A stretch of DNA of 35,609 bases, taken from sequence record DRR723986_7750; one strand, 5' to 3'. Position 1 is the stretch's first letter. Every line of letters begins with the position of its first letter. This document shows, one piece after another, positions 4,937 to 35,609 of the stretch. Made by a program: the position numbers and the translations under genes. The notes below the pieces were generated by a model. That model was not told the DNA's origin. It saw nothing but the letters and a program-made list of their open reading frames with translations, and ran no database searches.

Positions 4937-5012
4937 TGGTGGAAGCGACGAGAGTCGAACTCGCATCTCGTGGGTGACGAGCCGACGTGTTTTACCATTA
5001 AACTACACCCCC
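4937..5012 (-). tRNA. Non-canonical tRNA-like RNA (ambiguous anticodon CGT or GTC; possibly a pseudo-tRNA)
   Basis: 76 nt: GGGGGTG TA GTTT-AATGGTA-AAAC A CGTCGG-CTCGTCA-CCCACG AGAT GCGAG-TTCGACT-CTCGT CGCTTCC A CCA. D arm, T arm and CCA are intact; the anticodon arm is 2 nt too long. Confidence 0.75.
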
Positions 5013-11628: not shown

Positions 11629-13224
11629 TCACCGATCCATCCGAGCGGTTTTCATTCGTTTGAGGAATGTTCTATTGTCATAGTAGCGAGTCGCTTTGAG
11701 TAAGAGTGGTTTGTGATTGCTATAGAGAAACAGCATTTGATCATCTGCCATTCGCCGGACTTCATCGGGTGTCATAAGCGGACGTTGTTTTTCCGTTTCT
11801 CTGGCTGTGTCGAGTTGAAAGCCTGTTTCCCGGTGGTTAAGTGTTCGGTTGCCGAGGGTCAATGAGATTTGTTGAGTCGTCTCGTAATTCTGAATGCCTG
11901 GCAAGTAGATTTTACTCGCACAGTTTTCGAGAATCGTTTCTGCATCAGCCGTGCCGTAGAGAGATGAAAGTTGTTTCAGTGACTGAATTCCCAGCGATAA
12001 ACTGACATCGTAGGAACGTGCAAAGGATATGATGTTCTGAAAGCCCGGGACTTTTGGAATGTTGGCAAATTCATCAAGCAAAAAGTAAATGGGTTTTTCG
12101 TCCGGACTGGGCGACTGGCTACAGCAATAGTCAAAGAGATATTTGTATAAAATCGTTAAAATGAATCCGTAATATTCAAGGCGATAAGTAGGTATAGTCA
12201 AAAAGAGTGCTACGGAATCAGTTCGCATGCTGTGAATGTTTAAGGAGTCTCGGCCAGAGGTGACTGCTAATAAATTTTCATCAAAAAAGGCGTCAAGTAC
12301 AATGCGTGCCGCACTTAACATGCCGTCACGACTTTTTTCGGGTTCACCCGTCCAAGATTTATAGATGCGAAAACTGTCGTCATCAAGATGCCGAAAGATA
12401 AGTTGTTCTACCGTTTCCTGTTCGTCCGTCCGGAGCATGGCTAAAAACTGTGCGACTGTTCCGAGGTGTTGTCGATTTGGTTCCAATTGTTTGGTGAGGT
12501 AGAGCAACACACCAATGAGTCGTTCCGCACCACTATTCCAATACACCTGATCGCCAGATGCTTTTGAATACTTTGCTTCAACCAATATATTCGCCAGTTG
12601 CCTCATTTCCGAATAGGTCGAAACGTAGTCCAGTGGGTTAAACACATGCGAATGCCGAGGATCGGCAAGGTTAAACCAACGGATTGTATAACCTTGCGAT
12701 AGAAGGTGCGGAATGACCAATTCGGCAATTTCACCTTTAGGATCGGTGCAGACACATGACTGACCAATCAAATTGCCAGCATTGACCATAAAGAAAGTGC
12801 TAGACTTACCTTTTCCGCTCGGACCAACAATCAGCAAGTGGTTGTAGCTGTTTTTCTCAGAAATTCTCTGAGTGCCATCGATATACAGTCCATCGTTCTG
12901 TTTGGACAAGAGCTTTTTCCGGTCTTTGCCTTCGAGCCACGCTGCCGATCCATAAATGGTACTCGACGTGCGTTTGAGAAGTCTGAAACACTTTTCAGCT
13001 AAGTATTTGAGAACCTTCCACGATGTACGAATAATCCAACCTACGCCGCGAAAAATGCCCCGAAAGATCGATTCAATATCGAGAGGAAATGTTGGTGCTT
13101 TGGAAAACAGAATCCACCTAACCACCGTGTACATGAGCCACAATGATATCCCTAAGCCTATCAGTTGCAGGAGAGCATCATAGACAGATGATCCAATGGA
13201 AGCAAAAGTAGCTGAATCTACCAT
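11629..13224 (-). CDS. Type IV coupling protein (VirD4/TraG family)
   Basis: N-terminal TM, 'YGSAAW', Walker A GPSGKGKS, 'DPKGE', Walker B 'FLLDEFANI', 'IQSLKQL..LYG' and 'RPLMTPDEVR'. Confidence 0.93.
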   Translation of the reverse strand: MVDSATFASIGSSVYDALLQLIGLGISLWLMYTVVRWILFSKAPTFPLDIESIFRGIFRGVGWIIRTSWKVLKYLAEKCFRLLKRTSSTIYGSAAWLEGKDRKKLLSKQNDGLYIDGTQRISEKNSYNHLLIVGPSGKGKSSTFFMVNAGNLIGQSCVCTDPKGEIAELVIPHLLSQGYTIRWFNLADPRHSHVFNPLDYVSTYSEMRQLANILVEAKYSKASGDQVYWNSGAERLIGVLLYLTKQLEPNRQHLGTVAQFLAMLRTDEQETVEQLIFRHLDDDSFRIYKSWTGEPEKSRDGMLSAARIVLDAFFDENLLAVTSGRDSLNIHSMRTDSVALFLTIPTYRLEYYGFILTILYKYLFDYCCSQSPSPDEKPIYFLLDEFANIPKVPGFQNIISFARSYDVSLSLGIQSLKQLSSLYGTADAETILENCASKIYLPGIQNYETTQQISLTLGNRTLNHRETGFQLDTARETEKQRPLMTPDEVRRMADDQMLFLYSNHKPLLLKATRYYDNRTFLKRMKTARMDR

Positions 13225-14113: not shown

Positions 14114-14716
14114 TTACTGGCTCTCGGTCGAAGCAATAGGCTCTTCTGGCCGAGACATGCGATTTTCATGATTGATGCTAAGGAGTTGCGAAAGTGTATT
14201 GCGTGAGCGAGAAACAACTCGTTTTTGTACCACCGTTAAAGAAAAAAACAGCGAATAGAACAACAGTAAGAAGACAAGATTGACATAACTGTCAATGGGC
14301 GGTGAAAATCCACCTGAATTGAATAAGTGATGTGCACGGAGTGGGATAACCAAAAATGAAAAGGACAAAACCATATAGCAATAACGTAATGGAGTTAACA
14401 ACGCACGCTTCATCGAGAAATTTAGAAGTTCTATTGATATGATTTGAAAAAATGCGAGTAACAGAGCAAGTACGATACTCGAATAGACCGATCCGATCCC
14501 CAAGCTTATACCAAGTAGGGAATAGAAGAGACTTGCAATTATCGTGGCTCTCAAGGCCAGGTAAATCGTGCCTAATTTTGAAAATTCATTGTCCCCGCTC
14601 ACGGTCTTTTTGACCGTGTCAACGCTCACCAATCGAATGTTCTTGCCATGTTCAAGAAAGGGAGGAAGAACGAACACGAGCACCATTATCAGAAAGACAA
14701 GAATCAACCAGAACAT
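14114..14716 (-). CDS. Multi-pass membrane protein
   Basis: About five hydrophobic segments; starts 10 nt after the JAB-E1 stop. Confidence 0.75.
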   Translation of the reverse strand: MFWLILVFLIMVLVFVLPPFLEHGKNIRLVSVDTVKKTVSGDNEFSKLGTIYLALRATIIASLFYSLLGISLGIGSVYSSIVLALLLAFFQIISIELLNFSMKRALLTPLRYCYMVLSFSFLVIPLRAHHLFNSGGFSPPIDSYVNLVFLLLFYSLFFSLTVVQKRVVSRSRNTLSQLLSINHENRMSRPEEPIASTESQ

Positions 14717-14726
14717 TCTGTTGTCC

Positions 14727-16304
14727 TCAGTTTGTGACGAGTGTTAATGTTTTTGCGTCAGCTGCACTGTTTTTGACCCGAGCTTCATTGACCGTTGGCA
14801 ATTGTATGTGCCGATTGCGGTTCGTAAACCAATCAAGGTTTTCACTATCTCCCGAGCCAATGTAAATCTGACAGTTGAGGCAGGTGTTGGATTTGGTTTC
14901 TGGATCTTCAGAAGTCAAAACTCGCCTCAGTTTATTTGCTTCTCCATCTGGATCGTCATTCAATCGCATGAGATCAACAAATACGTTCCAGCTTAACGGC
15001 TTGTATCCAGTTAAAAGATTCAATGTTTCAAGGAGTACAAAGCTGGCAACATTCATATTTAACGGATACACCGAGGGAGCTGGATCATCAGCCGAATCAT
15101 CTCCTTTGATATACCCATGTGCCTTGAAATTGTGCCGAGTGTCAGGGTCAAGAAACGCATGTTGAATCTGTTGTCGATCATAGTAGTCTATGTGGCTACA
15201 ATCCATACATCGCGTAACGCCTGGCATAACGGTTGCCATTCGAATATTGAGAGTGTTAATCTTACCGTTCGTTCCATCGATCAAAGTCCCGGCATCAATG
15301 TAGGGGATGAGATATTGTAGCGACAGGCGATTGAGAAAATACCGGCTTTCATGTGTATCAGTACCGCCAATAATGACGTCACATTGTTTCAGGGCTGACA
15401 CAGCTTCTTCCGAGAAAAGCGTTGTTTGCAAGGCTTCGATTTTGAGCATGGGAAGCATTTGATTGAGCCGTTGCTTGCATACTTCAACCTTTGGCTTGTT
15501 AATATCTCGTTTGCGTCCACCTTGCCAGCGATTGAGATTGTGTGTCTCTACTTTATCGGGATCAATCAGGGTGAGAGTGCGGACACCAAGTCGCACCAAG
15601 CCCTCAGCCACGATGGAACCAACTCCACCGATTCCCACCAGACCTATGTGTGTCGTTGACAATGCCTTTTGTCCCGGTTCGCCAAAGGCCAAAACATGCC
15701 GAGAAAAGAGACCATCCTCCTCGCCAACTCTATTCTCAGACTTTAACGCTCGATTCGTAGGAAAGATATGCCGGATAGGTTCTCCTATGACAGATATCCG
15801 CTCTACGGCAAGAAACGATTTGGATTTGCTATCATAACGATGAGCGGCGATTGTCTCTTGTCCGAATACCATTGATGTCGCTATAACCGTTGCATCCTGA
15901 TTCTTTGAAGCTCGTTCCTTTGGAATCTCCGTTTGCAGGTAGGTGTGTTCGTGTTTGTCATCATTCAAATCCACCGAAGAAAACCACACGTCTCCCTGCT
16001 CGAAAGGATGACTATGACATTTAATGATGGAAGTGTAATCACTGTCAATAAATCGTTTGTGAACTTGTTGAACCAATTCTTTGGCAAGGTGAACATGCCC
16101 TTGACTGCGTTCAAGTTTGCCTTTTTGGTCTTGGATGGACAAGGCTTTATGTGGAAGCAAGATACAAGTGTTCTTGTACCGCACCGTATGTCCAAACAGG
16201 TAACATATTTGCTCTGTTTGATCTTTGAGCAAATGTTCTCGAATGGAATGGTAAAGTTCAGCGGTGAGTTTAATATTCAGATGTTTTATCGAGGGTTCAT
16301 TCAT
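14727..16304 (-). CDS. JAB/MPN metallopeptidase fused to a ThiF/E1-like adenylyltransferase
   Basis: JAB: 'EQICYL' and 'HSHPF...FSSVD'. E1: 'GIGGVGS', 'LIDPDKVETHNLNR', 'GTD..ESR', 'PYIDAG' and Zn pairs CMDC/CLNC. Confidence 0.92.
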   Translation of the reverse strand: MNEPSIKHLNIKLTAELYHSIREHLLKDQTEQICYLFGHTVRYKNTCILLPHKALSIQDQKGKLERSQGHVHLAKELVQQVHKRFIDSDYTSIIKCHSHPFEQGDVWFSSVDLNDDKHEHTYLQTEIPKERASKNQDATVIATSMVFGQETIAAHRYDSKSKSFLAVERISVIGEPIRHIFPTNRALKSENRVGEEDGLFSRHVLAFGEPGQKALSTTHIGLVGIGGVGSIVAEGLVRLGVRTLTLIDPDKVETHNLNRWQGGRKRDINKPKVEVCKQRLNQMLPMLKIEALQTTLFSEEAVSALKQCDVIIGGTDTHESRYFLNRLSLQYLIPYIDAGTLIDGTNGKINTLNIRMATVMPGVTRCMDCSHIDYYDRQQIQHAFLDPDTRHNFKAHGYIKGDDSADDPAPSVYPLNMNVASFVLLETLNLLTGYKPLSWNVFVDLMRLNDDPDGEANKLRRVLTSEDPETKSNTCLNCQIYIGSGDSENLDWFTNRNRHIQLPTVNEARVKNSAADAKTLTLVTN

Positions 16305-16341
16305 ACGAACGTCCTAGCGAATATCCGGTTATGAAAGAAGA

Positions 16342-17070
16342 TTAATGTTGATAGAGGGCTGGTTGCGATAGGGCACGGTAGAGATGTTCAATGTATCCAG
16401 CGAGGCAATCACCTTGAGTGATGTTGTGCGGCACAAAATTCCACTTTCTATTTACATGTTCATCATATCGAAAACACAGCCATTTCCAACCGTTGTTTGT
16501 GAGGTGCTCGGTGCTAAATTCTCGGTTATACATAGCTTGATCAAAAACATGCCCGAGTGCGTATTGAATTCTTGGGAAGTTGGGTGACCCCTGCTTAACA
16601 TGTATACCATTAGGACCAAATTCCGGATAATCGGCGATGACAATGGTGATGTTTTCGTAATCAGGGTCGAAAGAAACTTTCTCACCTGAAGGAAGGGTGC
16701 AATGGTCTGGCAAAGGGAAATTCAAGAGTTGAATCCATTCCAGATAGTCTTTTCCACCTAGAATATATTCTCGAGTGGCATTGTCTGGTTCAAACGTGTT
16801 ATAAAAGCCATGGATTAAACTAAGCTCCTGTTTAATCAGCCTTGTCTTGTAACCCGCCAGTGATACAGGGCGTTGATAGGTTTGAATTTGGTCATATTTT
16901 ATTGCGTCTTCAGACCTAACTTGCTCTGCCGAGAGAATCGTCCAGACTCCATCTGATTCTCTTTGAGCCTGAGCAGGGTTGCCACCTGTTAAAGTTGAAA
17001 TCTTAGTCGAAGAGTCTACTCGCTGGGGTAACATGTTTACCCGTAAGTTCTTGAATGATTGACGAGCCAT
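16342..17070 (-). CDS. Prokaryotic E2-like (UBC fold) protein with a putative N-terminal ubiquitin-like domain
   Basis: 'RLIKQEL', 'WIQLLNFPLP', 'ITIVIADYP..GP', 'GWKWLCF', 'W.F' and 'GDCLAGYI' resemble prokaryotic E2 family E. The first ~73 aa end in 'SLAG'. Adjacent to JAB-E1. Confidence 0.65.
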   Translation of the reverse strand: MARQSFKNLRVNMLPQRVDSSTKISTLTGGNPAQAQRESDGVWTILSAEQVRSEDAIKYDQIQTYQRPVSLAGYKTRLIKQELSLIHGFYNTFEPDNATREYILGGKDYLEWIQLLNFPLPDHCTLPSGEKVSFDPDYENITIVIADYPEFGPNGIHVKQGSPNFPRIQYALGHVFDQAMYNREFSTEHLTNNGWKWLCFRYDEHVNRKWNFVPHNITQGDCLAGYIEHLYRALSQPALYQH

Positions 17071-17123
17071 CACACACTCCTGTAAACATAGTTTAAGTTA
17101 GTACAATTGTTGTATTGCAATTT

Positions 17124-17363
17124 TTAACTGTCAATTTTCGGTCGAGGCTTTGCTGGTTCATTAACAAGACCAGTCCAATCAATTAATCGTTTGCCCTCAC
17201 TATCAAATTCAATTACATTTTGAACTCGTTCTGATGTATTGGGCAATTGTTCATCGGGAATTTCTGAACTGGATATCTGAGAGATTTCCCGTTTAATAAG
17301 GTTGTTCAAGCCAACAGTACTATCTACTTCTTGACTTTCTTGCCGGATTCTTTGACGTGCCAT
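17124..17363 (-). CDS. Small protein with a C-terminal DWTGLxNEP motif
   Basis: Motif shared with 17455-17883 supports coding status. Confidence 0.7.
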   Translation of the reverse strand: MARQRIRQESQEVDSTVGLNNLIKREISQISSSEIPDEQLPNTSERVQNVIEFDSEGKRLIDWTGLVNEPAKPRPKIDS

Positions 17364-17454
17364 GTGATGTGTTGTAAATACAAACACATTTTAGCACGCC
17401 TCGAATACTGTGTCAATAGCTTAGAGCAATATTAATTCCTCCTTGAAATGAGCT

Positions 17455-17883
17455 TTAATTGTTTTTCCTTGTCGGTTCATTGTGTAAACCAGTCCAGTCC
17501 ATTATGATCTTGCCGTCTTTGTCTTTCGGTCTTTGTTCCGAAGCTGGGAAAATGATTCTTCTTGGAGTTCCTCCTGGATTGAGAGGGTCGGGAGCTTGAC
17601 GTTGCTCTGCATTAACGGGTAGAGCACGATTATGATGAGCTTCAACTGGACGATCTGCAACGTGATAATCCGCCCGCGGATTTCTTTGGTGCACTCGACG
17701 CCTTGAAGCAACTGCATCTGATCCAATGTCGAAAAGCCACACTATTGCCTTCCACAGTCCAATAGCTGTATACTTCACCACAAGAAAAGCTCCAATTGCA
17801 GCGTATTTAACGCCAAACCATATCGCAACTAATACAAGCAGGATGAATAGAATTAAAGCCGAGATCAAAATGAAATCAACCAT
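17455..17883 (-). CDS. Membrane-anchored protein with a C-terminal DWTGLxNEP motif
   Basis: Hydrophobic N-terminus, low-complexity linker, and the motif shared with 17124-17363. Confidence 0.7.
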   Translation of the reverse strand: MVDFILISALILFILLVLVAIWFGVKYAAIGAFLVVKYTAIGLWKAIVWLFDIGSDAVASRRRVHQRNPRADYHVADRPVEAHHNRALPVNAEQRQAPDPLNPGGTPRRIIFPASEQRPKDKDGKIIMDWTGLHNEPTRKNN

Positions 17884-18390
17884 AGTAAGCACTTCTAGGA
17901 TTAGATAGTGAAAACACAGCTCGTCCGCACAACCCATTTTGAAGATTGGTCGTGAAAGGATCAGAAAGTAGTTGCCCAGTTAGGCGTTTAAGCTTCACGG
18001 CGACAGGTGGTAATTATTCCGGTAGAAGCACAGAGGTTCTAGACGTAGGTGATGCGTTGCAAATCAAACTGGTACGCGTTTGGCAATGACAGGAGCAAGA
18101 CTAATCTTGACTCTTGGTGAAAGCTCAATAATGTGTATCCAGCAGTTTCGGAAGCTCGGAGGAGTAGTTGGTTCAAGAACTATCTCATCCACCTACGTTT
18201 GGGAAGGTTTAGTTCCCACCGTTGGCCGAGATTGCGTAGCCCGGTACGATTATTCGTCCGGGCTGTTTATGGTATTGATTCTACTGGGGAAAGGATTAAA
18301 TAGTCCGTGCAGAGAATCTTGCACAAGAAAACACTATCTCAAAAGTTTGACAAGTTGCGGAGGTCACTTTATGGGGTAAGTCGGTAGCAT

Positions 18391-23830: not shown

Positions 23831-24523
23831 ATGTCTCAATTACCGTTCAAAACAGAAACGGCACAACAACTTCATGCCGTATTTCAACAATTTGTGTCAG
23901 AAGGACATTCACTCAAAAAGGTGTTTGAGGACTTTGTCCAACTCACCGTATATGGCTTTTCTCCTTTTGTAAACGTCCCGGTTATAAACCAAGTGATAAG
24001 CCAATGGCCATTGCGATCTGGAGAATCTTTTGTTGAATCGTTGCAAGCACAATTCCTGAAAGCTATTGCCATACTTGACCGAGGTATGGATCGGGAACAG
24101 TGCGACATATTGGGAGACTATTTCGAGACCGTTTTTTTTGGTGAAAAGTCAAAAGGACAAATATTAACCGGCGATCGATTGGTTGACCTAGTGAATGGTT
24201 TGACCTTCTTGTCCAAAAGCCAGTCAGAAGGAACCATCCTCGATCCCTGTTGTGGGTCTGGAAGATTTCTCTTATCCGCTGGAAACTTGAATCCAAAAAA
24301 CTTTCTCATCGGTGTTGACATTGACCTGCTCATGGCAAATATGTGTGCCGTTAATCTCGCCATGCACGGACTCCGAGGTGTCGTGATCTGGGCTGACATC
24401 TTTGATATTGATTTCGAACACCCGGAATGCACTACTTACAATCGAGTCTACGAAATTGGCATCGTCGCACCACGTGTCATTCGAGTTACGAATACGTTCA
24501 ACTTTCGATTTTGTGAAGAATGA
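23831..24523 (+). CDS. N6 DNA-methylase-like SAM-binding protein (short, no NPP[YF])
   Basis: 'DILGDYF', 'GQILT', 'ILDPCCGSGRFLL', 'GVDID' and 'MCAVNL'. Confidence 0.85.
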   Translation: MSQLPFKTETAQQLHAVFQQFVSEGHSLKKVFEDFVQLTVYGFSPFVNVPVINQVISQWPLRSGESFVESLQAQFLKAIAILDRGMDREQCDILGDYFETVFFGEKSKGQILTGDRLVDLVNGLTFLSKSQSEGTILDPCCGSGRFLLSAGNLNPKNFLIGVDIDLLMANMCAVNLAMHGLRGVVIWADIFDIDFEHPECTTYNRVYEIGIVAPRVIRVTNTFNFRFCEE

Positions 24524-24693
24524 TATTACCGGCTGAATGAAAGCGAAATGTCTTTGCGAACCGGGTTGTTTTCCAACCCCAAAAATGCCATGCGGCATCG
24601 GAAAAACAAGGTAGTACAAAGTCTCCACCTTGTTTTTCCGATTCGTACCTCATGGCTAGATGAAAGGGTTGTCAAACTAACCCTGGATTCGAA

Positions 24694-25440
24694 ATGCCAA
24701 AAATTCGCTTTACTACTCAGTCTGCTAAAAAGCTTCACGATATCTTTAGTCTCTTCGAACGCGACGGTCACGATCTCAGAAACGTATTCGACGATTTTCT
24801 TATCATGTCGATCTGTGCGTTGTCTGGCGGTGCGATGGAGGACCAATATCTTGAAATCGCCCGAAAATGGCCTCGTCGAGACGGAGAAGGCATTGGCGAA
24901 GGACTCATTGACGAATTTCCGAAAGCCTTTGCAACACTCGTCGAAGGGATGGAAACCGAAAAATGCGACGTTCTCGGTGACTACTTCATGGGAGCGATCA
25001 GTCACGGACACAATGGACAGTATTTCACACCCGACAATATCTGCAATTTGATGGCACAAATGATAGAGCCAAAGTCAGGAGAATCAGTTGCAGACTTTTG
25101 TTGCGGGAGTGGTCGCACCTTACTCGCAGGGGCAAAAACGAATCCAAACGGTCTGTTTGTCGGGAAAGACATCGATCTGCGATGCGTTCAAATGTGTACG
25201 ATCAATCTCGCACTAAACGGACTTCGAGGTTTTGTCATCTGGGGGAATGGACTAACTGATGAACAGAATCGAGTCTATCAAACAGGGTTTAATGGTCGAG
25301 GGTTTGTGAAAGAGATTGATCCGGAGCTTCACAGTTTTAGTCCCACTTCAGCGGCCAGCGATGCCCCAGTTTCGGAAATGGAAAAACGTAGTAATGGATC
25401 AGACCAGCTGTCTTTGTTTATTGATTTACAGAATGACTGA
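24694..25440 (+). CDS. N6 DNA-methylase-like SAM-binding protein (short, no NPP[YF])
   Basis: 'DVLGDYFM', 'GQYFTP', 'DFCCGSGRTLL', 'GKDID' and 'WGNGL'. Confidence 0.88.
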   Translation: MPKIRFTTQSAKKLHDIFSLFERDGHDLRNVFDDFLIMSICALSGGAMEDQYLEIARKWPRRDGEGIGEGLIDEFPKAFATLVEGMETEKCDVLGDYFMGAISHGHNGQYFTPDNICNLMAQMIEPKSGESVADFCCGSGRTLLAGAKTNPNGLFVGKDIDLRCVQMCTINLALNGLRGFVIWGNGLTDEQNRVYQTGFNGRGFVKEIDPELHSFSPTSAASDAPVSEMEKRSNGSDQLSLFIDLQND

Positions 25441-28018: not shown

Positions 28019-29785
28019 ATGATTCCATACAATTCCAATCACGTCAAGAATTCGATTCGCGTAGCTCTGTACATTCGCGTTTCTACAAGAGATCAGGAAA
28101 CTGGTTTTGGTCCCGATCTTCAAGAACATGAGTTACTCAAACATGTGGAAAGACATTCGTATAAAGGATGGTACACCAGTAGTAAATGGCGATTCTTTGA
28201 GCAAGAATCTGGCAAGAATAATGCACGACCAGAATTACAAAGACTCCTGAAAATGGCCGCACACGGCGAGTTTGATGTGGTCTTGGTTTGGGATATCAGT
28301 CGGATCAGTAGAGATTTACTGGACTTACTGCACATGTTTGTCAAGCTTCGGAATCGCAACGTAGGTTTTGCATCGCTCAAAGAGGATATGGACTTCACAG
28401 GCCATTTTGGGAAGTTCGTTCTCCAGGTGTTAGGTGCGATTGCGGAACTGGAATGGAACAAGATACAAGAACGGACATTTGAAGGAAAATTAGCGTCTGC
28501 CCGAGCCGGAAACTATATCTATGCCGCTCCAAAATTTGGGTTCAAACGTGTACCAAATGTCGATGGAAAAGGACATAAACTCAAGCTGATTGAAGCAGAA
28601 GCAGAGGTTGTCAGGCAGATTTTTCACTGGTTTGTGCGAGAGAAAAAGGGGCTGACTGAAATTGCCTCGATACTCAATGAGTCGAAGACTCTGAAAGGCA
28701 AGTACTGTCACGTTCGCACGCGTGGAACGAAGTGGTCTGACAACACCATTCGTGGCATTCTAACAAGCGAGGTTTACCGTGGTGTTTTTATCAGTAATAA
28801 GCGATCACTCATCAGCCGGAAGCCTAAACGCTACAAAGAGAACCCGGAAAGTCTCTGGATAAAAACGCCTGTAGAACGAGTCATATCTGATTCAATGTTT
28901 TATCTGGCAGGTCAACGACTCGAAAAGGGCAACCGTGGAGCAAGGGGCGGTGGTCGGCGAGACTATATCCTTGCAGGGAAGCTTTATGATCCAGTCACAA
29001 GACGAGGTTTTGTAGGCTATGAGTCTGCAAAGAAGACCAAAAACTATCGCCGTAAAAAAGTTCACGCGAACATCAGCCCTGACGGAAAAGAATATGCGAC
29101 CATAAGTGTCGCTGAAAAGGAGTTGTCAGAAACAGTATGGCGTTACGTGAAAATGATCGTAAATCAGCCTCAGAGATTTTTGGCACTCCACCAGAAGAAT
29201 CGAGACCATCAAAAAATCAAAGCTTCACTCGAAGCAGAGCAAGTCATTTGGAAGTCATCGATTGAAAGGAGCGATGAGCAAATCGAACGTTTGCAAAACG
29301 ATTTCTACAATGGACACATTGACGAAACCGAACGCAACCGGCGTCGATCTGGCTTCCTAAAAGATCGCGAACAAGCACAGAAGAAGCTACAGGAAGTCCA
29401 AGATCGGATCAGGCATATTGACGACTATGAGAAGGCTCGGGTATCCGTAGAGTCCTTTGGCAAAGCTCTTGAAAATCATCTGGAATCTGCCACATACCAA
29501 GAAAAGAAAGCCCTCATAAATCTTCTCGTAGATCGAATCGAAATACGAGATCATAGGTCATCTCAGGAATTCGTTCGCAAAGCCATTATCTTCTTCAAGT
29601 TCGAACTTGGACATGGTTCAGGGGGATCGTCACAAGGTCGAACTGGATTACCGCATGATGACGGCAAAAACGATCGCAATTCGCCGAAATCCGATGGTAC
29701 TGGCGGGGGAGAACGGAAAGGTTACTATTTGTTTGATTTCAGCGAGACACTTATGAGACGCAAACACTGGAATTGTAAACAGTAA
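28019..29785 (+). CDS. Large serine recombinase
   Basis: 'ALYIRVST..Q' (catalytic Ser), 'SG....RPELQRLL', 'DISRISR', 'FGF', 'EAEVVRQIF', 'IRGILTSEVYRG', coiled coil and 'KKALINLLVDRIEI'. Confidence 0.95.
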   Translation: MIPYNSNHVKNSIRVALYIRVSTRDQETGFGPDLQEHELLKHVERHSYKGWYTSSKWRFFEQESGKNNARPELQRLLKMAAHGEFDVVLVWDISRISRDLLDLLHMFVKLRNRNVGFASLKEDMDFTGHFGKFVLQVLGAIAELEWNKIQERTFEGKLASARAGNYIYAAPKFGFKRVPNVDGKGHKLKLIEAEAEVVRQIFHWFVREKKGLTEIASILNESKTLKGKYCHVRTRGTKWSDNTIRGILTSEVYRGVFISNKRSLISRKPKRYKENPESLWIKTPVERVISDSMFYLAGQRLEKGNRGARGGGRRDYILAGKLYDPVTRRGFVGYESAKKTKNYRRKKVHANISPDGKEYATISVAEKELSETVWRYVKMIVNQPQRFLALHQKNRDHQKIKASLEAEQVIWKSSIERSDEQIERLQNDFYNGHIDETERNRRRSGFLKDREQAQKKLQEVQDRIRHIDDYEKARVSVESFGKALENHLESATYQEKKALINLLVDRIEIRDHRSSQEFVRKAIIFFKFELGHGSGGSSQGRTGLPHDDGKNDRNSPKSDGTGGGERKGYYLFDFSETLMRRKHWNCKQ

Positions 29786-30061: not shown

Positions 30062-31009
30062 TCAGTAAATCGGAAGACGTGTGTTAAATTTTTCTTTGGG
30101 ATGAGCTTCACAGTTCCATCTTAGGTCGCACGCAACACAGGTCTCTTCTCCAGGATTCAAATTCGGGGATTCAGAAGGTTGCCAATCGTCTTCTTTCCTA
30201 GCCATAATGATTTCGTGAGCAGTTTTGTCGAATTCACTTAAACCAGTTTGGATCAAATTCAGCTCTCCTTCACCCAACTCATTTGTTGACAAAAAATCAA
30301 TTTCGTAGATCGCGGAAACCGGCCGATCTACATAACTACTCTCAGAAGTGTCTAGTTCATCTAAAAAGTACAGAATTGCCTTTCTTGGATATTGTCCCAA
30401 TTTCGCCTTGTACAGTTCTGCATAGACACTCATTTGCCACTTGTACATTTGCAATTCATAAGAAGAGCGGTCCGGACACTTAGAACCTTTATAATCCCAA
30501 ATCTCAAATCCGTCTTCACCATTGGTAGAGGCAATGACATCTACAACTCCTCGAAGAATGTAGTCTTCGTTTTCGGTTTCAAGCCGACATTCGGTATCTA
30601 CAACTCGAGGGTAAAGTGCAGGTCCTTCGATCTTATTAAATACTCTTAACAGCTTCAGTGCATGCTTAGAGACACTAGAAGAGATTGGGTGGGTGCCTTG
30701 CATCTTGAGTGCTTGGTTGACCTCAGTAAAGTATTTCTCAACATCACTTTCATTCGGTAATGATCCCTTAGGTTCAGAATACTGTCCTAAATAGTGCCCA
30801 TGACACCTATCCAAAACCTGATGAATTATTTGTCCGAAATACATTTGAGCTGATCTTGCTGGCTCAAATCCATCGTACGCAAAGTATCCATATTGTCTTG
30901 GGCACTTTCTGTACGATATTATGTCTGAAGTCAAGCTAAACCTTGGTCTAGCGATAATCTGACTGTTGCTTTTGACCAAGTTTGGAGGAAAAACAGAGTT
31001 TGAGTTCAT
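30062..31009 (-). CDS. PD-(D/E)XK nuclease, RecB/AddB/Cas4-like with probable Fe-S cysteines
   Basis: 'YRKCPRQY', 'GQIIHQVL', 'E..L......LRGVVD...IWDYKGS', 'QMSVYA' and C-terminal CxxCxxxxxC. Confidence 0.9.
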   Translation of the reverse strand: MNSNSVFPPNLVKSNSQIIARPRFSLTSDIISYRKCPRQYGYFAYDGFEPARSAQMYFGQIIHQVLDRCHGHYLGQYSEPKGSLPNESDVEKYFTEVNQALKMQGTHPISSSVSKHALKLLRVFNKIEGPALYPRVVDTECRLETENEDYILRGVVDVIASTNGEDGFEIWDYKGSKCPDRSSYELQMYKWQMSVYAELYKAKLGQYPRKAILYFLDELDTSESSYVDRPVSAIYEIDFLSTNELGEGELNLIQTGLSEFDKTAHEIIMARKEDDWQPSESPNLNPGEETCVACDLRWNCEAHPKEKFNTRLPIY

Positions 31010-31026
31010 TAGCTGCGACCTATTAA

Positions 31027-33321
31027 TCAAATTGAAACAGTTCTATTTTTTACCCAGCGTCGTTCGGAACCCAAAGGGACCGATTGTTCGTTGAAGTGCT
31101 TTTGAAGTCCAACCAATATTAAAGCGTGCTTGGCTCGAGAATATGCAACGTAAAATTGTCGAATAACATCAGTGTTAGCACGAGTTTCGGAATCTGACAG
31201 AGCAATTTTTCGACTGGAATGAATAGGATATCTCGAAAACAGCTCTTCAATCTCATGTGTCGAACTAGGGGTTGCTTTTCCGTTTAAATGACCTACAAAA
31301 ACGAAAGGAAATTCAAGTCCTTTGGCTTGATGCATCGTCATAATAGGAAGCATTCCCTGAGGAACTATAACATCTTCGTCTTCAAAGTCATCAATTCCAG
31401 TATTCAAAACGGCTCCCAAAAACAAATGGCAAAATCCACGGAGCCACCATGAGTCTACTTCACCAGGAAACTCATCAGAAGTTTTAATGTAGCCTCTAGT
31501 TAATTTGATTTCCACAGCTCTATTTTTTCCAGCTAGTATAACTTTAGGCCGGCCTGTCTCTCTGTCTAAAATTGGCATCGAGCTATAAACTTCTAGAAGT
31601 GACGTGATTTTTCCCAATCTTTTCCTTTTTACTGGATCTTTTTGCCACGTGGTAAACGGTTCAAGACTCATCAAGAGATAGGCTAACTCTTGCAAACTGA
31701 CCTTCAATGGTTCTCCACATTGACTCTCAATTGCATGAGTCGACGCTCTGATGTATTGAGATAGTTCTTCATATTGATTAATAACTGAGTCAAAATCTTC
31801 GCTAAGCTTGTTTATCTTATCAGAGACGACAGTGGAATTATTTTGGTCAAACATGAATCTTTGTCTTGGGTCAAACAGTCTCAATAAAGCCCCCAGCAGA
31901 AGCTGCACTTCATCCTGTCTAGTAAAAGCTTTGTTTCTAGGGTTATAAACATTGATTCCTGCATCACTTAGAGACTTAATAAATTTTCCTGCGTTATTTG
32001 GGCTGTCTCTCGTGCTTGTGAGAAGCAAGCAACAATCACTAAGGTCGTTGATCACCTCATTTTCCAATAGCGATTGTATCAATGAGACGAACTTTCTATT
32101 CATTTCCGCAACGTTTTTTCCTGCAATTCTACTGACTGCCGGGTAGTTGCCTGAAATTGAGGATTTAGCCCTGATTCTCGGTTTACTCGCTCTTACTCCG
32201 TCAAGCCCCATTATTGGAAATGTGTTAATATAATCATCAAAAAAATCAACAATCTGAGGGTGTGATCTAAAATTATCTACCAATGGATACTTCTTTACGT
32301 TCTGACTCTTCAGATTAAGGAATGCTTCACAAGCCTTATCGAAAGTTACCATACATTCGACAGACCCGCCTCTGAATCGATACATAGCTTGATCATCGTC
32401 ACCAACCACAACTAAATTGTGAGGAGACCGTTTGGCGAGAGTAAAGTAAATCTCTTCTTGCATGGGATTTGTGTCTTGGTACTCATCTACCAAGACCCAC
32501 TTTATTCCTAAATCTTTGTTCTCTGGAACTCCGGTAACTAGATTGTTCACTGGTTCTGAAAGCAAGTAGTCAAGAAATCGAGATTGCAAATGAGGGAAAT
32601 CGCATCTAAAACTTTCTTTCATTTTTTGAACATAATCTTGGTAAATGTCAGTAAGTAATTTGCATTGGTCATCCTCACCTTTTAGTTGTTTTGTATCGAC
32701 TCTATTTTCAACGATCCGATCCAATAGCGTTTTTATGGCTCTTGCACTTTTCCATTTACTAGGAGGGTATTCATAAATAGGTTGCCATTGGTTTGGTCTG
32801 AACATCCAAGAAAACCTTCTCCAAAAGGTTAATTGCCTAGATGGAGGTGTATTTTTAAACAAATCCAATGATTCATGGATAAATAACTCTTGCTCGAACT
32901 CGTCCATCATCCGAACATTTTGGTACTGTGGTGCTCTTTGATCCAAAAGAATGTCCTGACACAGGCTATGTAATGTACCAATTCGAAGTCTAGAAAGGTT
33001 AATTGCCTTTGTCTCTGGAAATCTATTTTGTATGTCTTTTGAGTAGCGACTAATCCTGTCTTCTAAATTTCTAGCCGCTTTCTTAGTAAATGTTGTTACA
33101 AAAATTGACTCGGGTGGTACTTGTTCCTTTTGGACTGGGTCATTACTAACGTATAAAAGCCTCAAAACCATGAGGGTTAAAATTTCTGTTTTTCCAGAAC
33201 CCGGACCGGCCAAAATCCATGCGGGACCATTTTTGTGGTGTAAAATATTTTGCTGATCCTGAGTGAGTATTTTGTCTCCCGCGGCAGGATACAGCAAGTC
33301 TGTTAAATCTTGTGTAGTCAT
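31027..33321 (-). CDS. UvrD/REP-family SF1 helicase
   Basis: 'AGPGSGKT', 'TFTKKAA', 'GTLHS', 'LVDEYQDTN', 'VGDDDQAMYRFRG', 'NFRS', 'MTMHQAKGLEF' and 'YVAYSRA'. Confidence 0.95.
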   Translation of the reverse strand: MTTQDLTDLLYPAAGDKILTQDQQNILHHKNGPAWILAGPGSGKTEILTLMVLRLLYVSNDPVQKEQVPPESIFVTTFTKKAARNLEDRISRYSKDIQNRFPETKAINLSRLRIGTLHSLCQDILLDQRAPQYQNVRMMDEFEQELFIHESLDLFKNTPPSRQLTFWRRFSWMFRPNQWQPIYEYPPSKWKSARAIKTLLDRIVENRVDTKQLKGEDDQCKLLTDIYQDYVQKMKESFRCDFPHLQSRFLDYLLSEPVNNLVTGVPENKDLGIKWVLVDEYQDTNPMQEEIYFTLAKRSPHNLVVVGDDDQAMYRFRGGSVECMVTFDKACEAFLNLKSQNVKKYPLVDNFRSHPQIVDFFDDYINTFPIMGLDGVRASKPRIRAKSSISGNYPAVSRIAGKNVAEMNRKFVSLIQSLLENEVINDLSDCCLLLTSTRDSPNNAGKFIKSLSDAGINVYNPRNKAFTRQDEVQLLLGALLRLFDPRQRFMFDQNNSTVVSDKINKLSEDFDSVINQYEELSQYIRASTHAIESQCGEPLKVSLQELAYLLMSLEPFTTWQKDPVKRKRLGKITSLLEVYSSMPILDRETGRPKVILAGKNRAVEIKLTRGYIKTSDEFPGEVDSWWLRGFCHLFLGAVLNTGIDDFEDEDVIVPQGMLPIMTMHQAKGLEFPFVFVGHLNGKATPSSTHEIEELFSRYPIHSSRKIALSDSETRANTDVIRQFYVAYSRAKHALILVGLQKHFNEQSVPLGSERRWVKNRTVSI

Positions 33322-33461
33322 TTACATTGCTCTTAGTCAATTGCACTGAGTCCTGTAGCGACGGGACTATGGCTAGACCTGTAGAAAAGCCGAGTGCAGA
33401 GTTAATATTTGAAGAGTAGTTAAATGGTTTTTCAACATGGAGTAATAAGGCAAATAGATTC

Positions 33462-35171
33462 TCACTTAAGGCTCTTATATAGCATGAGTGTGTTGTGTGC
33501 TCCTCTTCTTTTATTTCTATTTGCTCCTCTGAAAATCAACATGTGAATACCAACCGATCTGCAAAATCGGCACTTACAGTTTCGCCACGGTTTATCTTCT
33601 AGAGTTTGTTTATAGTTGGCCTTTAAAGACCGCAAATCGGAAGTGCGAATCAGCTGAGAGTCGTATTCTAACACTGCATCCAACACTTCTATTAACGTTG
33701 CTGAATCATTGTCGAAATCGTTAAGCAATTTCATGACATTGACTTCTTGTAACTCTAAATTTTCCAGGTCTAATCCAGATTCTAGAAGTCTAGCTCGCGT
33801 CCGACCGTCTTTTGTCATAGGAACACGAATGGCTGCATACCACTTGCCTGAAACAGACAAATAATTTTGATCTGACCTTAGCCAAGCTTTTCTAAAGTAT
33901 GTTGCACTATCAAAGCTGTTGACCTTCAGTCTTCGAAAAGTGTTTTGCAATTTTGGTCTGAATACTCCAAAGAGATGCACCCAAGGCCGAGGGGTTAACT
34001 TATTTACCACAGCCATAACTTCACTCACAATGGCTTCAATTAGGGTGTCTTGCAATGGCACCAACCCTCCGAGAGCCAAATGCCTGTATCCCATAGAGTG
34101 ATAAAGTTTAGCAGAATGAGCATAATCTTGAGGAGAGAGTCCTTGAATCGTACCAACGGGGGTGAAAGTTGCTTTTCTTGACATGGCAGCATCAAGAAAC
34201 AACTGGGCATTCTGAATTGTCAATTCAACTCTTCTTTTTCGTTCCTTCTTGGTCAGTTCTTTCCGTTTTCCATTATGCTGAACATAAGGTACTGGGATGT
34301 GGTCCACAGAAGCCCCAAAGTCAAATCCATGAAGGTCGTATAGTGACGCTGCATTTTCAACTGAAATCGTTGGAACTTGTTCATTCGAATAGCTAAATGC
34401 CCCACAATCACCGAACAACCATTGATCTTTGCGTAATCCAAACCGTGAACGCATATCTTGTGGTGCTAGAGTTTCAGCTTCTGTTCCAATCAGCTTTTTC
34501 ATCGGCCCTTTGGAAGCATGCTTTTGTGCTAGACTCACCAGAACTCCATCGCACATTCGGTTTGGTTTCATCAGAATTGAACAGTGTTTATCCCCTCGTG
34601 CTTTTGGACTGCTCCCAGAAAATTCATCAGTCTCAAAGTTGAACTTACTGTCCAACCGATCATCCCAGTCAGGCAAGAAATACTTAATCCGATCACTGTT
34701 AGACTCCAGTGTCGTTGATGGTTTTTCTGGAGGGACTGTTGTCGAACTCAGCAGATTTTTGATCTGGCTAAGTTTCATTCCTATTGGTCCCTCAAAAACA
34801 GATGCTTTAGTCTTGAGACTGCCCCCTAAGGAGCGTTGAACGGCAGGCAAGTAATCTTTTCCGAGAGACAAGAAAACCTGCTCGTGATCTGTCGCCCAAG
34901 TTTCCATCGTTTTGATGCAATCGTCTTCAATGGTTGAGGCGATTCTTGCTGTCATTCGTAGATCATAATTCTCAATTCCTGTAAATCCACCCACCAATCC
35001 ATATTTTGCGGATAAAACAGCAACGGACAAATCTGTAGGCCATCCATTCTTTCTTAGATGGCTACGAAGAACGCGATAGGGGGAACCGTCGTATCGATCA
35101 ATGGCAGGTAGTAAACCGTTTGTGGTGCGTTTGGTCTGTGAGCACCCCATAATAAGGAGCGTGCGATTCAA
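33462..35171 (-). CDS. DpdA-like guanine transglycosylase (TGT family) with an N-terminal DUF6884-like domain
   Basis: TGT motifs 'GDCGAFSY', 'GTIQG', 'ALGGLVP', 'HLFG', 'SFDS' and Zn site 'CKCRFC...HN'. N-terminal 'CSQTK...PAIDRYDG...VLSAKYGL...IENYD..M'. Confidence 0.85.
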   Translation of the reverse strand: MNRTLLIMGCSQTKRTTNGLLPAIDRYDGSPYRVLRSHLRKNGWPTDLSVAVLSAKYGLVGGFTGIENYDLRMTARIASTIEDDCIKTMETWATDHEQVFLSLGKDYLPAVQRSLGGSLKTKASVFEGPIGMKLSQIKNLLSSTTVPPEKPSTTLESNSDRIKYFLPDWDDRLDSKFNFETDEFSGSSPKARGDKHCSILMKPNRMCDGVLVSLAQKHASKGPMKKLIGTEAETLAPQDMRSRFGLRKDQWLFGDCGAFSYSNEQVPTISVENAASLYDLHGFDFGASVDHIPVPYVQHNGKRKELTKKERKRRVELTIQNAQLFLDAAMSRKATFTPVGTIQGLSPQDYAHSAKLYHSMGYRHLALGGLVPLQDTLIEAIVSEVMAVVNKLTPRPWVHLFGVFRPKLQNTFRRLKVNSFDSATYFRKAWLRSDQNYLSVSGKWYAAIRVPMTKDGRTRARLLESGLDLENLELQEVNVMKLLNDFDNDSATLIEVLDAVLEYDSQLIRTSDLRSLKANYKQTLEDKPWRNCKCRFCRSVGIHMLIFRGANRNKRRGAHNTLMLYKSLK

Positions 35172-35530
35172 CTTTCTACCTTGGTGTAATTGGAGAGAAT
35201 CAGAGTGTTTTTATTGCCAACATTGTGTGAGTTCATTGGAGATTTTACTGTGCTGTGTTATCCTCACAATTTCATCGAATATACAAATTTTACAGCTTTG
35301 ACCATAGCAGAAACTCTAGCCGAATACATGCTAGTAGATTGACCAATACATCACTCCAAACTTGCTGTCTCTTGGTGACAATTTTGATACCAGTGCAAAT
35401 CTTTTTGAATTTTTAAAACTGACGTTCTAAGCCTGCCAGATCAAAATGAACTCGTAATTCGAACAGACTATAACAAACTATTCACAGTGAATCAGTCCTT
35501 GCGAATTTGACCGTGATCAACTGGTGGGAA

Positions 35531-35552
35531 AGTGTATGCAATACGTATGCAG
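35531..35552 (+). promoter_or_regulatory. Putative integrase arm-type binding sites (right)
   Basis: AGTGTATGCAATACGTATGCAG, same orientation as 147-168. Confidence 0.7.
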
Positions 35553-35557
35553 CCCAC

Positions 35558-35593
35558 AAAAAAAGCCTCACAAACTTTCGTCTGCAAGGCTTT
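35558..35593 (-). terminator. Terminator downstream of the (off-window) target tRNA
   Basis: The minus strand reads AAAGCCTTGCAGAC-GAAA-GTTTGTGAGGC-TTTTTTT shortly after ...CACCA. Confidence 0.8.
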
Positions 35594-35600
35594 AGAGGTT

Positions 35601-35609
35601 GAGTTGGTG
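35601..35609 (-). repeat. Right att site / start of the terminal direct repeat (tRNA CCA end)
   Basis: GAGTTGGTG is identical to bases 1-9. Confidence 0.75.

Follow-up and report, generated by a model that had tools for sequence, protein, structure and literature searches.

The 35,609-nucleotide (nt) stretch of DNA in sequence record DRR723986_7750, referred to here at its full length as the window, carries towards its right-hand end three genes that appear to make up a small, widespread, putative bacterial defence system. The module consists of three co-oriented open reading frames (ORFs) on the minus strand, the largest of which encodes a helicase, while the first in the direction of transcription encodes a fusion of two domains:

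33462..35171, minus strand: fusion gene, 569 amino acids (aa), start codon TTG; DpdA DNA-guanine transglycosylase preceded by a DpdC-like DUF6884 domain
34722..35171, minus strand: N-terminal domain of the fusion protein, residues 1 to ~150; DUF6884/YaaA fold, probable relationship to DpdC in its N-terminal half
33465..34688, minus strand: DpdA domain of the fusion protein, residues 162-569
31027..33321, minus strand: helicase gene, 764 aa; UvrD/PcrA-type superfamily 1 (SF1) helicase
30062..31030, minus strand: nuclease gene, 322 aa, likely true start ATG 31009; Cas4/AddB-type PD-(D/E)XK nuclease with four cysteines in an iron-sulphur (Fe-S) pattern

An earlier reading made from the letters of the DNA alone (the sequence-only reading) had recognised three co-oriented genes with the helicase and nuclease genes nearly abutting, and the ORFs prove to have exactly these boundaries. 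The spacing between the last two genes depends on the start codon of the nuclease: TTG 31030 gives a 4-nt overlap with the helicase ORF and ATG 31009, which better fits the lengths of relatives, a 17-nt gap. The stop codon of the fusion gene lies 140 nt from the start of the helicase gene. The description of this end of the window as tRNA-proximal did not hold, since the single tRNA gene (Thr, 4937-5012) is ~25 kb away and none is found in 35172-35609 by ARAGORN or Rfam.

What had been described as a DpdA-like tRNA-guanine transglycosylase (TGT) turns out to be a true DpdA that retains all of the catalytic aspartates and the zinc cysteines. The fusion protein scores 346.7 bits against the NCBIfam DpdA model NF041059 (cut-off 200), with residues 162-568 aligned to model positions 1-403 of 406, and matches PADLOC DpdA at E 4.1e-100; its Pfam TGT match, at 25.5 bits, falls just below the cut-off of 26.3. 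A profile of 20 full-length relatives (positions 158-569) aligns end to end, at E 3.8e-80, with the nearest solved structure, 7UI4, which is the DNA-guanine transglycosylase (DpdA) of S. Montevideo (SmDpdA). In SmDpdA, according to the available part of PMC10164549, Asp95 is the general acid/base and Asp256 the nucleophile, with Asp130 and His181 at the edge of the base. The profile alignment places D255, D421, D290 and Q343 of the window protein at the positions of D95, D256, D130 and His181, respectively. D255, D290 and D421 are invariant in the 20-sequence alignment and, across 135 family members, Asp is kept at the D255, D421 and D290 columns in 134, 134 and 133. At the position of Q343 the residue is Gln in 128 of the 135 and His in seven, including the DpdA of an Enterobacter plasmid; since Gln is the commonest residue here, Q343 is normal for the family and the idea that the change from His181 is a defect was rejected. 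Motif residues of the domain also include G368-G369. The zinc cysteines C532, C534 and C537 are conserved, and H559, invariant in the 20-sequence alignment, is presumably the fourth zinc ligand, as the spacing in TGT enzymes would predict. With the catalytic Asp residues and the zinc site in place, the DpdA domain looks catalytically complete.

The DpdA domain belongs to a lineage apart from that of the DpdB-linked DpdAs. In a FastTree phylogeny of 135 DpdA domains (a quick tree with local support values only, from which 29 fragmentary rows of 164 had been dropped) the window protein falls in a 26-row clade with a local support of 99, made up of 22 fusions of the window type and four shorter rows. 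The DpdB-linked DpdAs of the Enterobacter and Agrobacterium plasmids are placed elsewhere, in a 29-row clade (support 99), and most of the fusions with long N-termini likewise lie outside the clade of the window protein. The canonical plasmid DpdAs share 29-37% identity with the window protein, confined to the C-terminal domain.

The N-terminal domain of the fusion protein, residues 1 to ~150, matches Pfam DUF6884 at 24.4 bits, under the cut-off of 30, and YaaA likewise below threshold, and the AlphaFold model (predicted local distance difference test, pLDDT, 88.4) has a YaaA-type fold. In the portions of the literature available, DUF6884 is described as a distant relative of YaaA in which CxxxK and LSAxxG motifs are present and a pocket for base flipping is predicted (PMC11701544), and DpdC as a DUF328/PF03883 protein (PMC12839542, PMC5699537); 'DUF6884, e.g., dpdC' is an entry in a survey of dpd islands (10.1101/2025.02.24.639861). 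The Pfam DUF6884 label is common to the family of the window domain and to DpdC, and the two share a set of collinear motifs: C10-x3-K14, Y27.G29, L53-S54-A55..G58 and Y69, invariant in 25 sequences of the window family, correspond to C10-x3-K14, Y61.G63, L83-S84-A85-G86.G88 and Y99, invariant in canonical DpdC (318 aa in the enterobacterial protein, which matches PADLOC DpdC at 9.5e-160). A first-round profile of the domain finds other DpdAs that carry a DUF6884-like domain fused C-terminally (E-values down to 3.5e-9), and a second-round profile of 144 domains, in which no DpdC was included, matches three canonical DpdCs at 5.3e-5 to 1.4e-4 (database size, Z, set to 1e6). A profile of the domain run against PDB sequences gave a chance row only (E 1.5).

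Gene fusions and gene order provide a further link. Among the relatives of DpdA there are natural full-length DpdC-DpdA fusions (P0159, P0150), and others in which DpdA is joined to a shorter DpdC N-terminus, to DpdB or to the 138-residue 'PDC-M57A' of PADLOC. In one locus (L068) a separate DUF6884 gene, scoring 39.4 bits and thus over the cut-off, overlaps at its end with an unfused DpdA gene. Based on these comparisons we conclude that the N-terminal domain is probably homologous to the core of DpdC at its N-terminus. The claim of the sequence-only reading that the element lacks dpdC was thus only half right, a DpdC-like domain being fused to DpdA itself; its accompanying claim of no queC or queD stood (tblastn). 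DpdC is reported to turn preQ0-DNA into ADG-DNA alone, independently of DpdA and DpdB (PMC10164549, in the part available). As a separate observation, the arrangements seen among the fusion relatives P0181, P0219, P0229 and P0159 are DpdA-DpdB, DpdC-DpdA, and a type IV restriction-enzyme-like N-terminus followed by PDC-M57A and DpdA.

The identification of the other two proteins as a UvrD helicase and a PD-(D/E)XK nuclease with an Fe-S pattern was upheld by Pfam, motif and fold comparisons. The helicase matches PF00580 (1.3e-51) and PF13361 (3e-20), contains the Walker A sequence GPGSGKT and a DEYQD motif, and has PcrA, UvrD and AddA as its nearest solved structures; among its relatives Walker A is kept in 57/59, and DExQD and GDDDQ in 59/59. 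The nuclease matches Pfam PDDEXK_1 (PF12705) at 2.1e-18 and carries the motifs C43...C298-x2-C301-x5-C307, D164, D179-Y-K181 and Q199...Y203. All ten of these residues (C43, D164, D179, Y180, K181, Q199, Y203, C298, C301 and C307) are invariant in the 58 nucleases of at least 280 aa, and the C...CxxCx5C pattern is one that we take to signify binding of a 4Fe-4S cluster, as predicted for the window protein. Searched by sequence against PDB sequences the nuclease has no match; a fold search with its model (pLDDT 81.8) returned as best folds the Cas4-family ACE1 (2e-7), AdnA (3.9e-6) and AddB (8.2e-6), and further matches to Cas4 SSO0001 (5.2e-5), RecE and Dna2. The helicase also has PADLOC matches to GajB profiles (best 1.6e-37), which are explained by the shared UvrD fold alone: Gabija was rejected as an identity for the pair because no GajA (OLD family) occurs among the window proteins scanned and the partner is instead a Cas4-type nuclease. 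A CRISPR Cas4 was likewise rejected, there being no cas genes among the 32 window ORFs scanned.

The fusion protein has many relatives. A search of 5.8 billion proteins gave 1046 at E ≤0.001 among the 8000 candidates scored, and the best 120 are 538-628 aa long with 59-66% identity over 94-100% of the query; a scan of representatives at 50% identity gave 2019 matches at E ≤0.001 and 235 at ≤1e-30. A first genome scan with the single protein as query found no relative, and a scan with an alignment as query, taking one genome per species, gave 69 loci. Homologues of both the helicase and the nuclease are present in 58 of these, always as an adjacent pair, and the 58 full modules are spread over 14 phyla. 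The helicase gene is directly downstream on the same strand in 49/69. Intergenic gaps, computed with longest-ORF starts, are short: the median from DpdA to helicase is 0.5 nt (41/50 at ≤30 nt) and from helicase to nuclease 9 nt (57/61 at ≤30 nt). A single locus, on a 6.6-kb contig (L040), has the helicase without the nuclease, and ten of the 69 have neither. In four of the pair-less loci (L030, L034, L054, L062) the pair is replaced by a HerA ATPase and a protein of 480-830 aa that has no assigned family, and three others (L029, L068, L069) have under 2.6 kb of downstream sequence. Among 2.9 million viral contigs one locus was found (L077), in which all three genes keep this order; its 143-kb contig may be a phage, a prophage flank or a misassigned contig.

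The recurrence of one gene order in 58/69 loci indicates that the arrangement is more than chance, and the linkage of the TGT gene to the helicase-nuclease genes elsewhere, which the sequence-only reading had named as a check on itself, is thereby confirmed. This has direct bearing on the possibility that the protein is a tRNA-modifying transglycosylase that lies beside an unrelated DNA repair helicase-nuclease by chance. Some family members are named 'tRNA-guanine transglycosylase DpdA' by the Prokaryotic Genome Annotation Pipeline (PGAP), others being called 'hypothetical' by annotation pipelines, and there are weak matches to archaeal TgtA. However, the window protein is far over the DpdA equivalog cut-off and reaches 36 bits against a TgtA cut-off of 350, its nearest solved structure is a DNA-guanine transglycosylase, and coincidence would not produce the linkage across 14 phyla, so that this explanation is very improbable.

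Two further sets of genes are seen around the modules. The HerA ATPase (PADLOC HerA, 1.4e-75) and its partner, which has no Pfam or PADLOC match, occur together in ten loci, and in L009, L010, L012, L015, L018 and L019 they are inserted between the fusion gene and the helicase-nuclease genes. A ~310-aa protein without a Pfam match, for which a DUF6414-like match is a lead only, flanks the module in 10/69 loci (L003, L005, L006, L037, L039, L041, L046, L049, L051, L067), accompanied in three of them by a HAD hydrolase. The canonical dpd cluster of Agrobacterium vitis (L071) has a 304-aa hypothetical protein and a HAD hydrolase at the same position.

Genes for preQ0 supply are recurrent neighbours of the fusion gene. 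QueC (13), QueD/PTPS (9) and the Vut_1/YhhQ transporter family (7), each identified with Pfam from two representatives, recur in the 69 loci, at least one of queC, queD and yhhQ being present in 22, and QueC is encoded in 5/5 complete carrier genomes tested. In the window itself no homologue of QueC, QueD, YhhQ or HerA was found by tblastn or in Pfam scans of 32 window ORFs, and the module of the window is predicted to use host preQ0. The same linkage informs a second suggestion of the sequence-only reading, that of a sensor of deazaguanine-modified phage DNA. In such a type IV-like sensor the DpdA-like protein would recognise 7-deazaguanine in phage DNA and recruit the helicase-nuclease. The DpdA fold binds deazaguanine bases, and defence against deazaguanine-modified phages does exist in the form of GrwAB and Dag1/Dag2 (PMC12137116, 10.1101/2025.10.29.685425), although the systems described in the available parts of those reports use other proteins. 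The nucleophile and the general acid/base Asp are kept family-wide, although sensing alone would not require them, and the association with queC, queD and yhhQ in 22/69 loci points to a need for preQ0. The retention of catalytic residues and the linkage to supply genes thus disfavour a sensor, which we regard as quite unlikely.

The partners of a canonical Dpd system are missing. DpdB (NF041060) was found in 0/8 carrier genomes by a search that was positive in 2/2 canonical control plasmids, and in none of the window proteins scanned; DndB-type proteins occur in 1/5 carrier genomes, far from the locus. DpdC (PDLC02818) was found in 0/10 carrier genomes, and a DpdC search across 401 genomes gave one match. 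DpdE, the only one of DpdD-K to be searched for genome-wide, was over the cut-off in 0/5 carrier genomes, and no Dpd protein other than DpdA was detected among the ten window proteins scanned with PADLOC. A canonical Dpd system was accordingly rejected, there being neither DpdB nor DpdE.

The absence of DpdB raises the possibility that the module is concerned with modification only, with the UvrD helicase opening the DNA in place of DpdB, the nuclease processing or repairing intermediates, and no restriction taking place. This would fit with the position of the helicase gene directly after the DpdA gene in 49/69 loci, often overlapping it, and with the proposal, in the Discussion of PMC10164549 as available, that DpdB may hydrolyse ATP in order to open DNA locally, much like a helicase. 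The behaviour of the pair in other settings argues otherwise. Relatives of the pair adjoin dpdB-dpdA-dpdB-queE-queD-queC on the Bradyrhizobium plasmid pB41S5 and a 714-aa TGT with a DGQHR protein on a Scytonema plasmid; the pair co-occurs with DpdB in both plasmids and so does not simply replace it. Four loci combine the fusion gene with the HerA pair and have no UvrD helicase, the pair also occurs where there is no DpdA, either free-standing or within a defence island, and a processive nuclease of the Cas4/AddB type would be an odd helper for base exchange. Modification without restriction is therefore improbable, if somewhat less so than a sensor.

The pair extends to archaea, where on a Halobaculum plasmid (L075) its relatives adjoin queC-folE-queE-PTPS and a 968-aa TGT-like gene. 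The nuclease of L075 is 42% identical to that of the window, which suggests that this locus is an archaeal counterpart of the system. On Halomicrobium and Natronococcus plasmids the pair is a single fused ORF (1047 and 1073 aa), indicating that helicase and nuclease act as one unit. DpdE is over the cut-off in none of the Bradyrhizobium, Scytonema and Halobaculum plasmids and in both canonical plasmids without the pair. Taken with the variety of its neighbours and the HerA pair that replaces it in four loci, this suggests that the helicase-nuclease is an interchangeable effector arm.

The best-supported explanation, to which a probability of roughly 0.58 can be given, is that the module combines a DpdB-independent Dpd-type modification enzyme with a two-gene restriction arm that would stand in place of DpdD-K. 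This favours the idea, put forward in the sequence-only reading, of a compact base-exchange modification and restriction system that draws on host preQ0: the DpdA domain looks complete, the pair accompanies it in 58/69 loci, supply genes in 22/69, and QueC was present in every complete carrier genome tested. We infer the activity on DNA, the chemical product, restriction by the helicase-nuclease and the discrimination between marked and unmarked DNA. In the proposed mechanism, the host queuosine pathway would supply preQ0, which the DpdA domain would exchange for guanine at particular DNA sites without the aid of DpdB. The fused DpdC-like domain, by analogy with DpdC, would then flip out the new base and convert its nitrile to an amide, giving dADG. 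This domain has an invariant Cys and Lys, and the Cys may attack the nitrile; QueF and nitrilase chemistry form the basis for such a step. Finally, the UvrD-type helicase and the Cas4/AddB-type nuclease would work as one ATP-driven helicase-nuclease, replacing DpdD-K as the restriction arm and degrading DNA that lacks the mark. In short, the fused enzyme probably places a 7-deazaguanine base in the DNA of its own cell as a mark, and the helicase-nuclease pair probably destroys foreign DNA that is without it.

Several observations count against this explanation. The DpdA of Salmonella needs the DpdB ATPase (PMC10164549, available part), which is absent here. The resemblance of the N-terminal domain to DpdC is faint when measured directly: the best PADLOC match of the domain alone is DpdC, at E 0.001 over residues 16-81, and hhalign comparisons with single DpdC proteins or a DpdC alignment are weak (E 0.04, probability 1.3%). 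Moreover, the domain covers only the first half of DpdC, ~150 residues being present of the about 310-320 aa of the full-length architecture, and the C-terminal half is missing. The pair is missing from three loci (L013, L026, L042) that have the fusion gene and at least 10 kb of downstream sequence; they carry other genes instead, recombinases following the fusion gene in L026. Conversely, the pair follows the DISARM genes drmA-C on a Nostoc plasmid with no DpdA, and its Halomicrobium and Natronococcus relatives have no DpdA nearby; such free-standing copies indicate that the helicase-nuclease unit does not need DpdA. The apparent mutual exclusion of the pair and DpdE, finally, is drawn from a sample of only five plasmids.

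A more specific form of the proposal can be offered tentatively. Sparse 7-deazaguanine marks, probably dADG, might serve as stop or 'self' signals for a processive AddAB-like helicase-nuclease in a three-gene immune system, in the way that Chi sites do with RecBCD, the fused domain allowing DpdA to insert and mature the base without an ATPase partner. We consider this possible, and clearly less probable than the broader explanation from which it derives.

The surroundings of the module bear on one further explanation. Next to the nuclease gene, and convergent with it, lies a gene that is context rather than part of the module:

28019..29785, plus strand: large serine recombinase (Resolvase 2.7e-32, Recombinase 9.2e-19; weak CcrC/CcrB-like matches)

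This recombinase shows that the module sits in mobile DNA, and the window also encodes a relaxase, MobC, a coupling protein and an integrase. The module might accordingly protect the mobile element, marking its DNA against the restriction systems of new hosts as phage DpdA does, with the helicase-nuclease used for exclusion or for processing during transfer. Phage DpdAs act without DpdB and shield DNA from restriction (PMC10516641, available part), DpdA identities of 50-66% across 14 phyla point to horizontal spread, and the recombinases after the fusion gene in L026 are in keeping with the same idea. On the other hand, many carriers have the module on multi-megabase chromosomes and only one locus was found in 2.9 million viral contigs. 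The available part of the same report puts modification by bacterial DpdA at <0.1% of G (PMC10516641), which is too little for general anti-restriction, and the constant helicase-nuclease partner would be left unexplained. Element protection is hence doubtful, marginally more so than a role in modification alone.

Other features of the window are recorded here as observations in their own right. An imperfect 22-nt direct repeat (20/22 identical) has one copy, AGTGTATGCAAT, at 147-168, where it overlaps the start of a tyrosine integrase ORF (148-1431), and the other, GTATGCAG, at 35531-35552, at a distance of 35,384 nt. A single large integrative element, with the module inside it, may have these repeats as its attachment sites. 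A strong terminator-like hairpin at 35562-35593 on the minus strand, with 14 pairs and then a T run, points leftward and suggests that a minus-strand gene ends just past the window. A ThiF/E1-like protein (PF00899, 4.2e-47) is encoded at 14727-16304, within a region (14114-17937) that adjoins the type IV coupling protein gene (11629-13224); flanked by ORFs of 200, 243 and 160 aa without a family match, it may be part of a cassette for ubiquitin-like conjugation carried by the mobile element. Two adjacent short ORFs, at 23831-24523 (230 aa) and 24694-25440 (248 aa), have N6-adenine DNA methylase matches (HsdM/MAD2-like) to the same N-terminal to central part of methylases, and the pair (23831-25440) may have arisen from a methylase gene by splitting, duplication or decay.

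Comparison with known systems places the module close to, and distinct from, several of them. With the Dpd system of S. Montevideo (dpdA-K) it shares a DpdA-type transglycosylase with its catalytic Asp residues and zinc site, a DpdC-like domain, a predicted use of preQ0 from the queuosine pathway with que genes sometimes linked, and modification genes that adjoin an arm made up of helicase and nuclease. It differs in that it has no DpdB (0/8 carrier genomes), that its DpdC is cut to the N-terminal ~150 residues and fused to DpdA, and that its DpdA lies in a clade of its own, apart from the DpdB-linked enzymes; furthermore, the canonical restriction arm contains SNF2 and DEAD-box helicases and a phospholipase D (PLD) nuclease, whereas that of the module is an SF1 UvrD-type helicase with a Cas4/AddB-type nuclease. 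Like the phage enzymes DpdA1-4, the window protein is predicted to insert deazaguanine into DNA without DpdB; unlike them, it fits the bacterial DpdA model NF041059 and has a DpdC-like domain and a helicase-nuclease partner, and its module is nearly absent from viral contigs (one locus). The pair resembles AddAB, AdnAB, RecBCD and Cas4 in its UvrD-family SF1 motor, RecB-fold nuclease and C...CxxCx5C pattern, and fused single-chain forms exist among its relatives. However, it comprises one motor and one small nuclease encoded by two genes in place of two large subunits, lacks a second, inactive helicase-like subunit, and is linked to modification rather than recombination genes. Gabija is similar in that the helicase matches GajB profiles, and different in that GajA is absent from the window proteins scanned. 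Finally, the CxxxK and LSAxxG motifs are shared with YaaA/DUF328 and DUF6884 proteins such as B. subtilis YfjM (PMC11701544, in the part available), but the domain of the module is fused to a transglycosylase and, judged by its context, would act on 7-deazaguanine in DNA and have no role in oxidative stress or the handling of lesions.

Some of this was known already, in that PGAP labels certain family members as DpdA. The DpdC-like fusion, the lack of DpdB and the UvrD-Cas4 partner appear to be new, and the functions ascribed to them are predicted ones. No description of the three-gene module, the DpdC-like fusion, DpdB independence or the UvrD-Cas4 partner was found in the searchable literature; an earlier description is possible. 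The GATOR-GC survey of dpd islands, in the part available (10.1101/2025.02.24.639861), required dpdA and dpdB together, and this class could therefore not have been found there.

The significance of a module of this kind lies in its size. Canonical Dpd needs eleven genes and, according to the available part of PMC10164549, exceeds all other restriction-modification systems discovered so far in size and complexity, the reason for its complexity being, in the words of that account, not understood. Laboratory reconstruction of a natural version with three genes would be much simpler, since it comprises one modification protein, predicted to work without DpdB, and a two-protein restriction arm of a well-studied type. 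Such a reconstruction could answer why DpdA needs an ATPase, what chemistry a DpdC-type domain performs, and how a helicase-nuclease senses a modified base. To our knowledge, how the restriction arm of Dpd reads the 7-deazaguanine mark is unsolved. If the stop or 'self' signal proposal were true, the module would be the smallest 7-deazaguanine restriction-modification system, and the modification arm of Dpd would be a portable module with interchangeable effectors, namely UvrD-Cas4, HerA pairs and DpdD-K.

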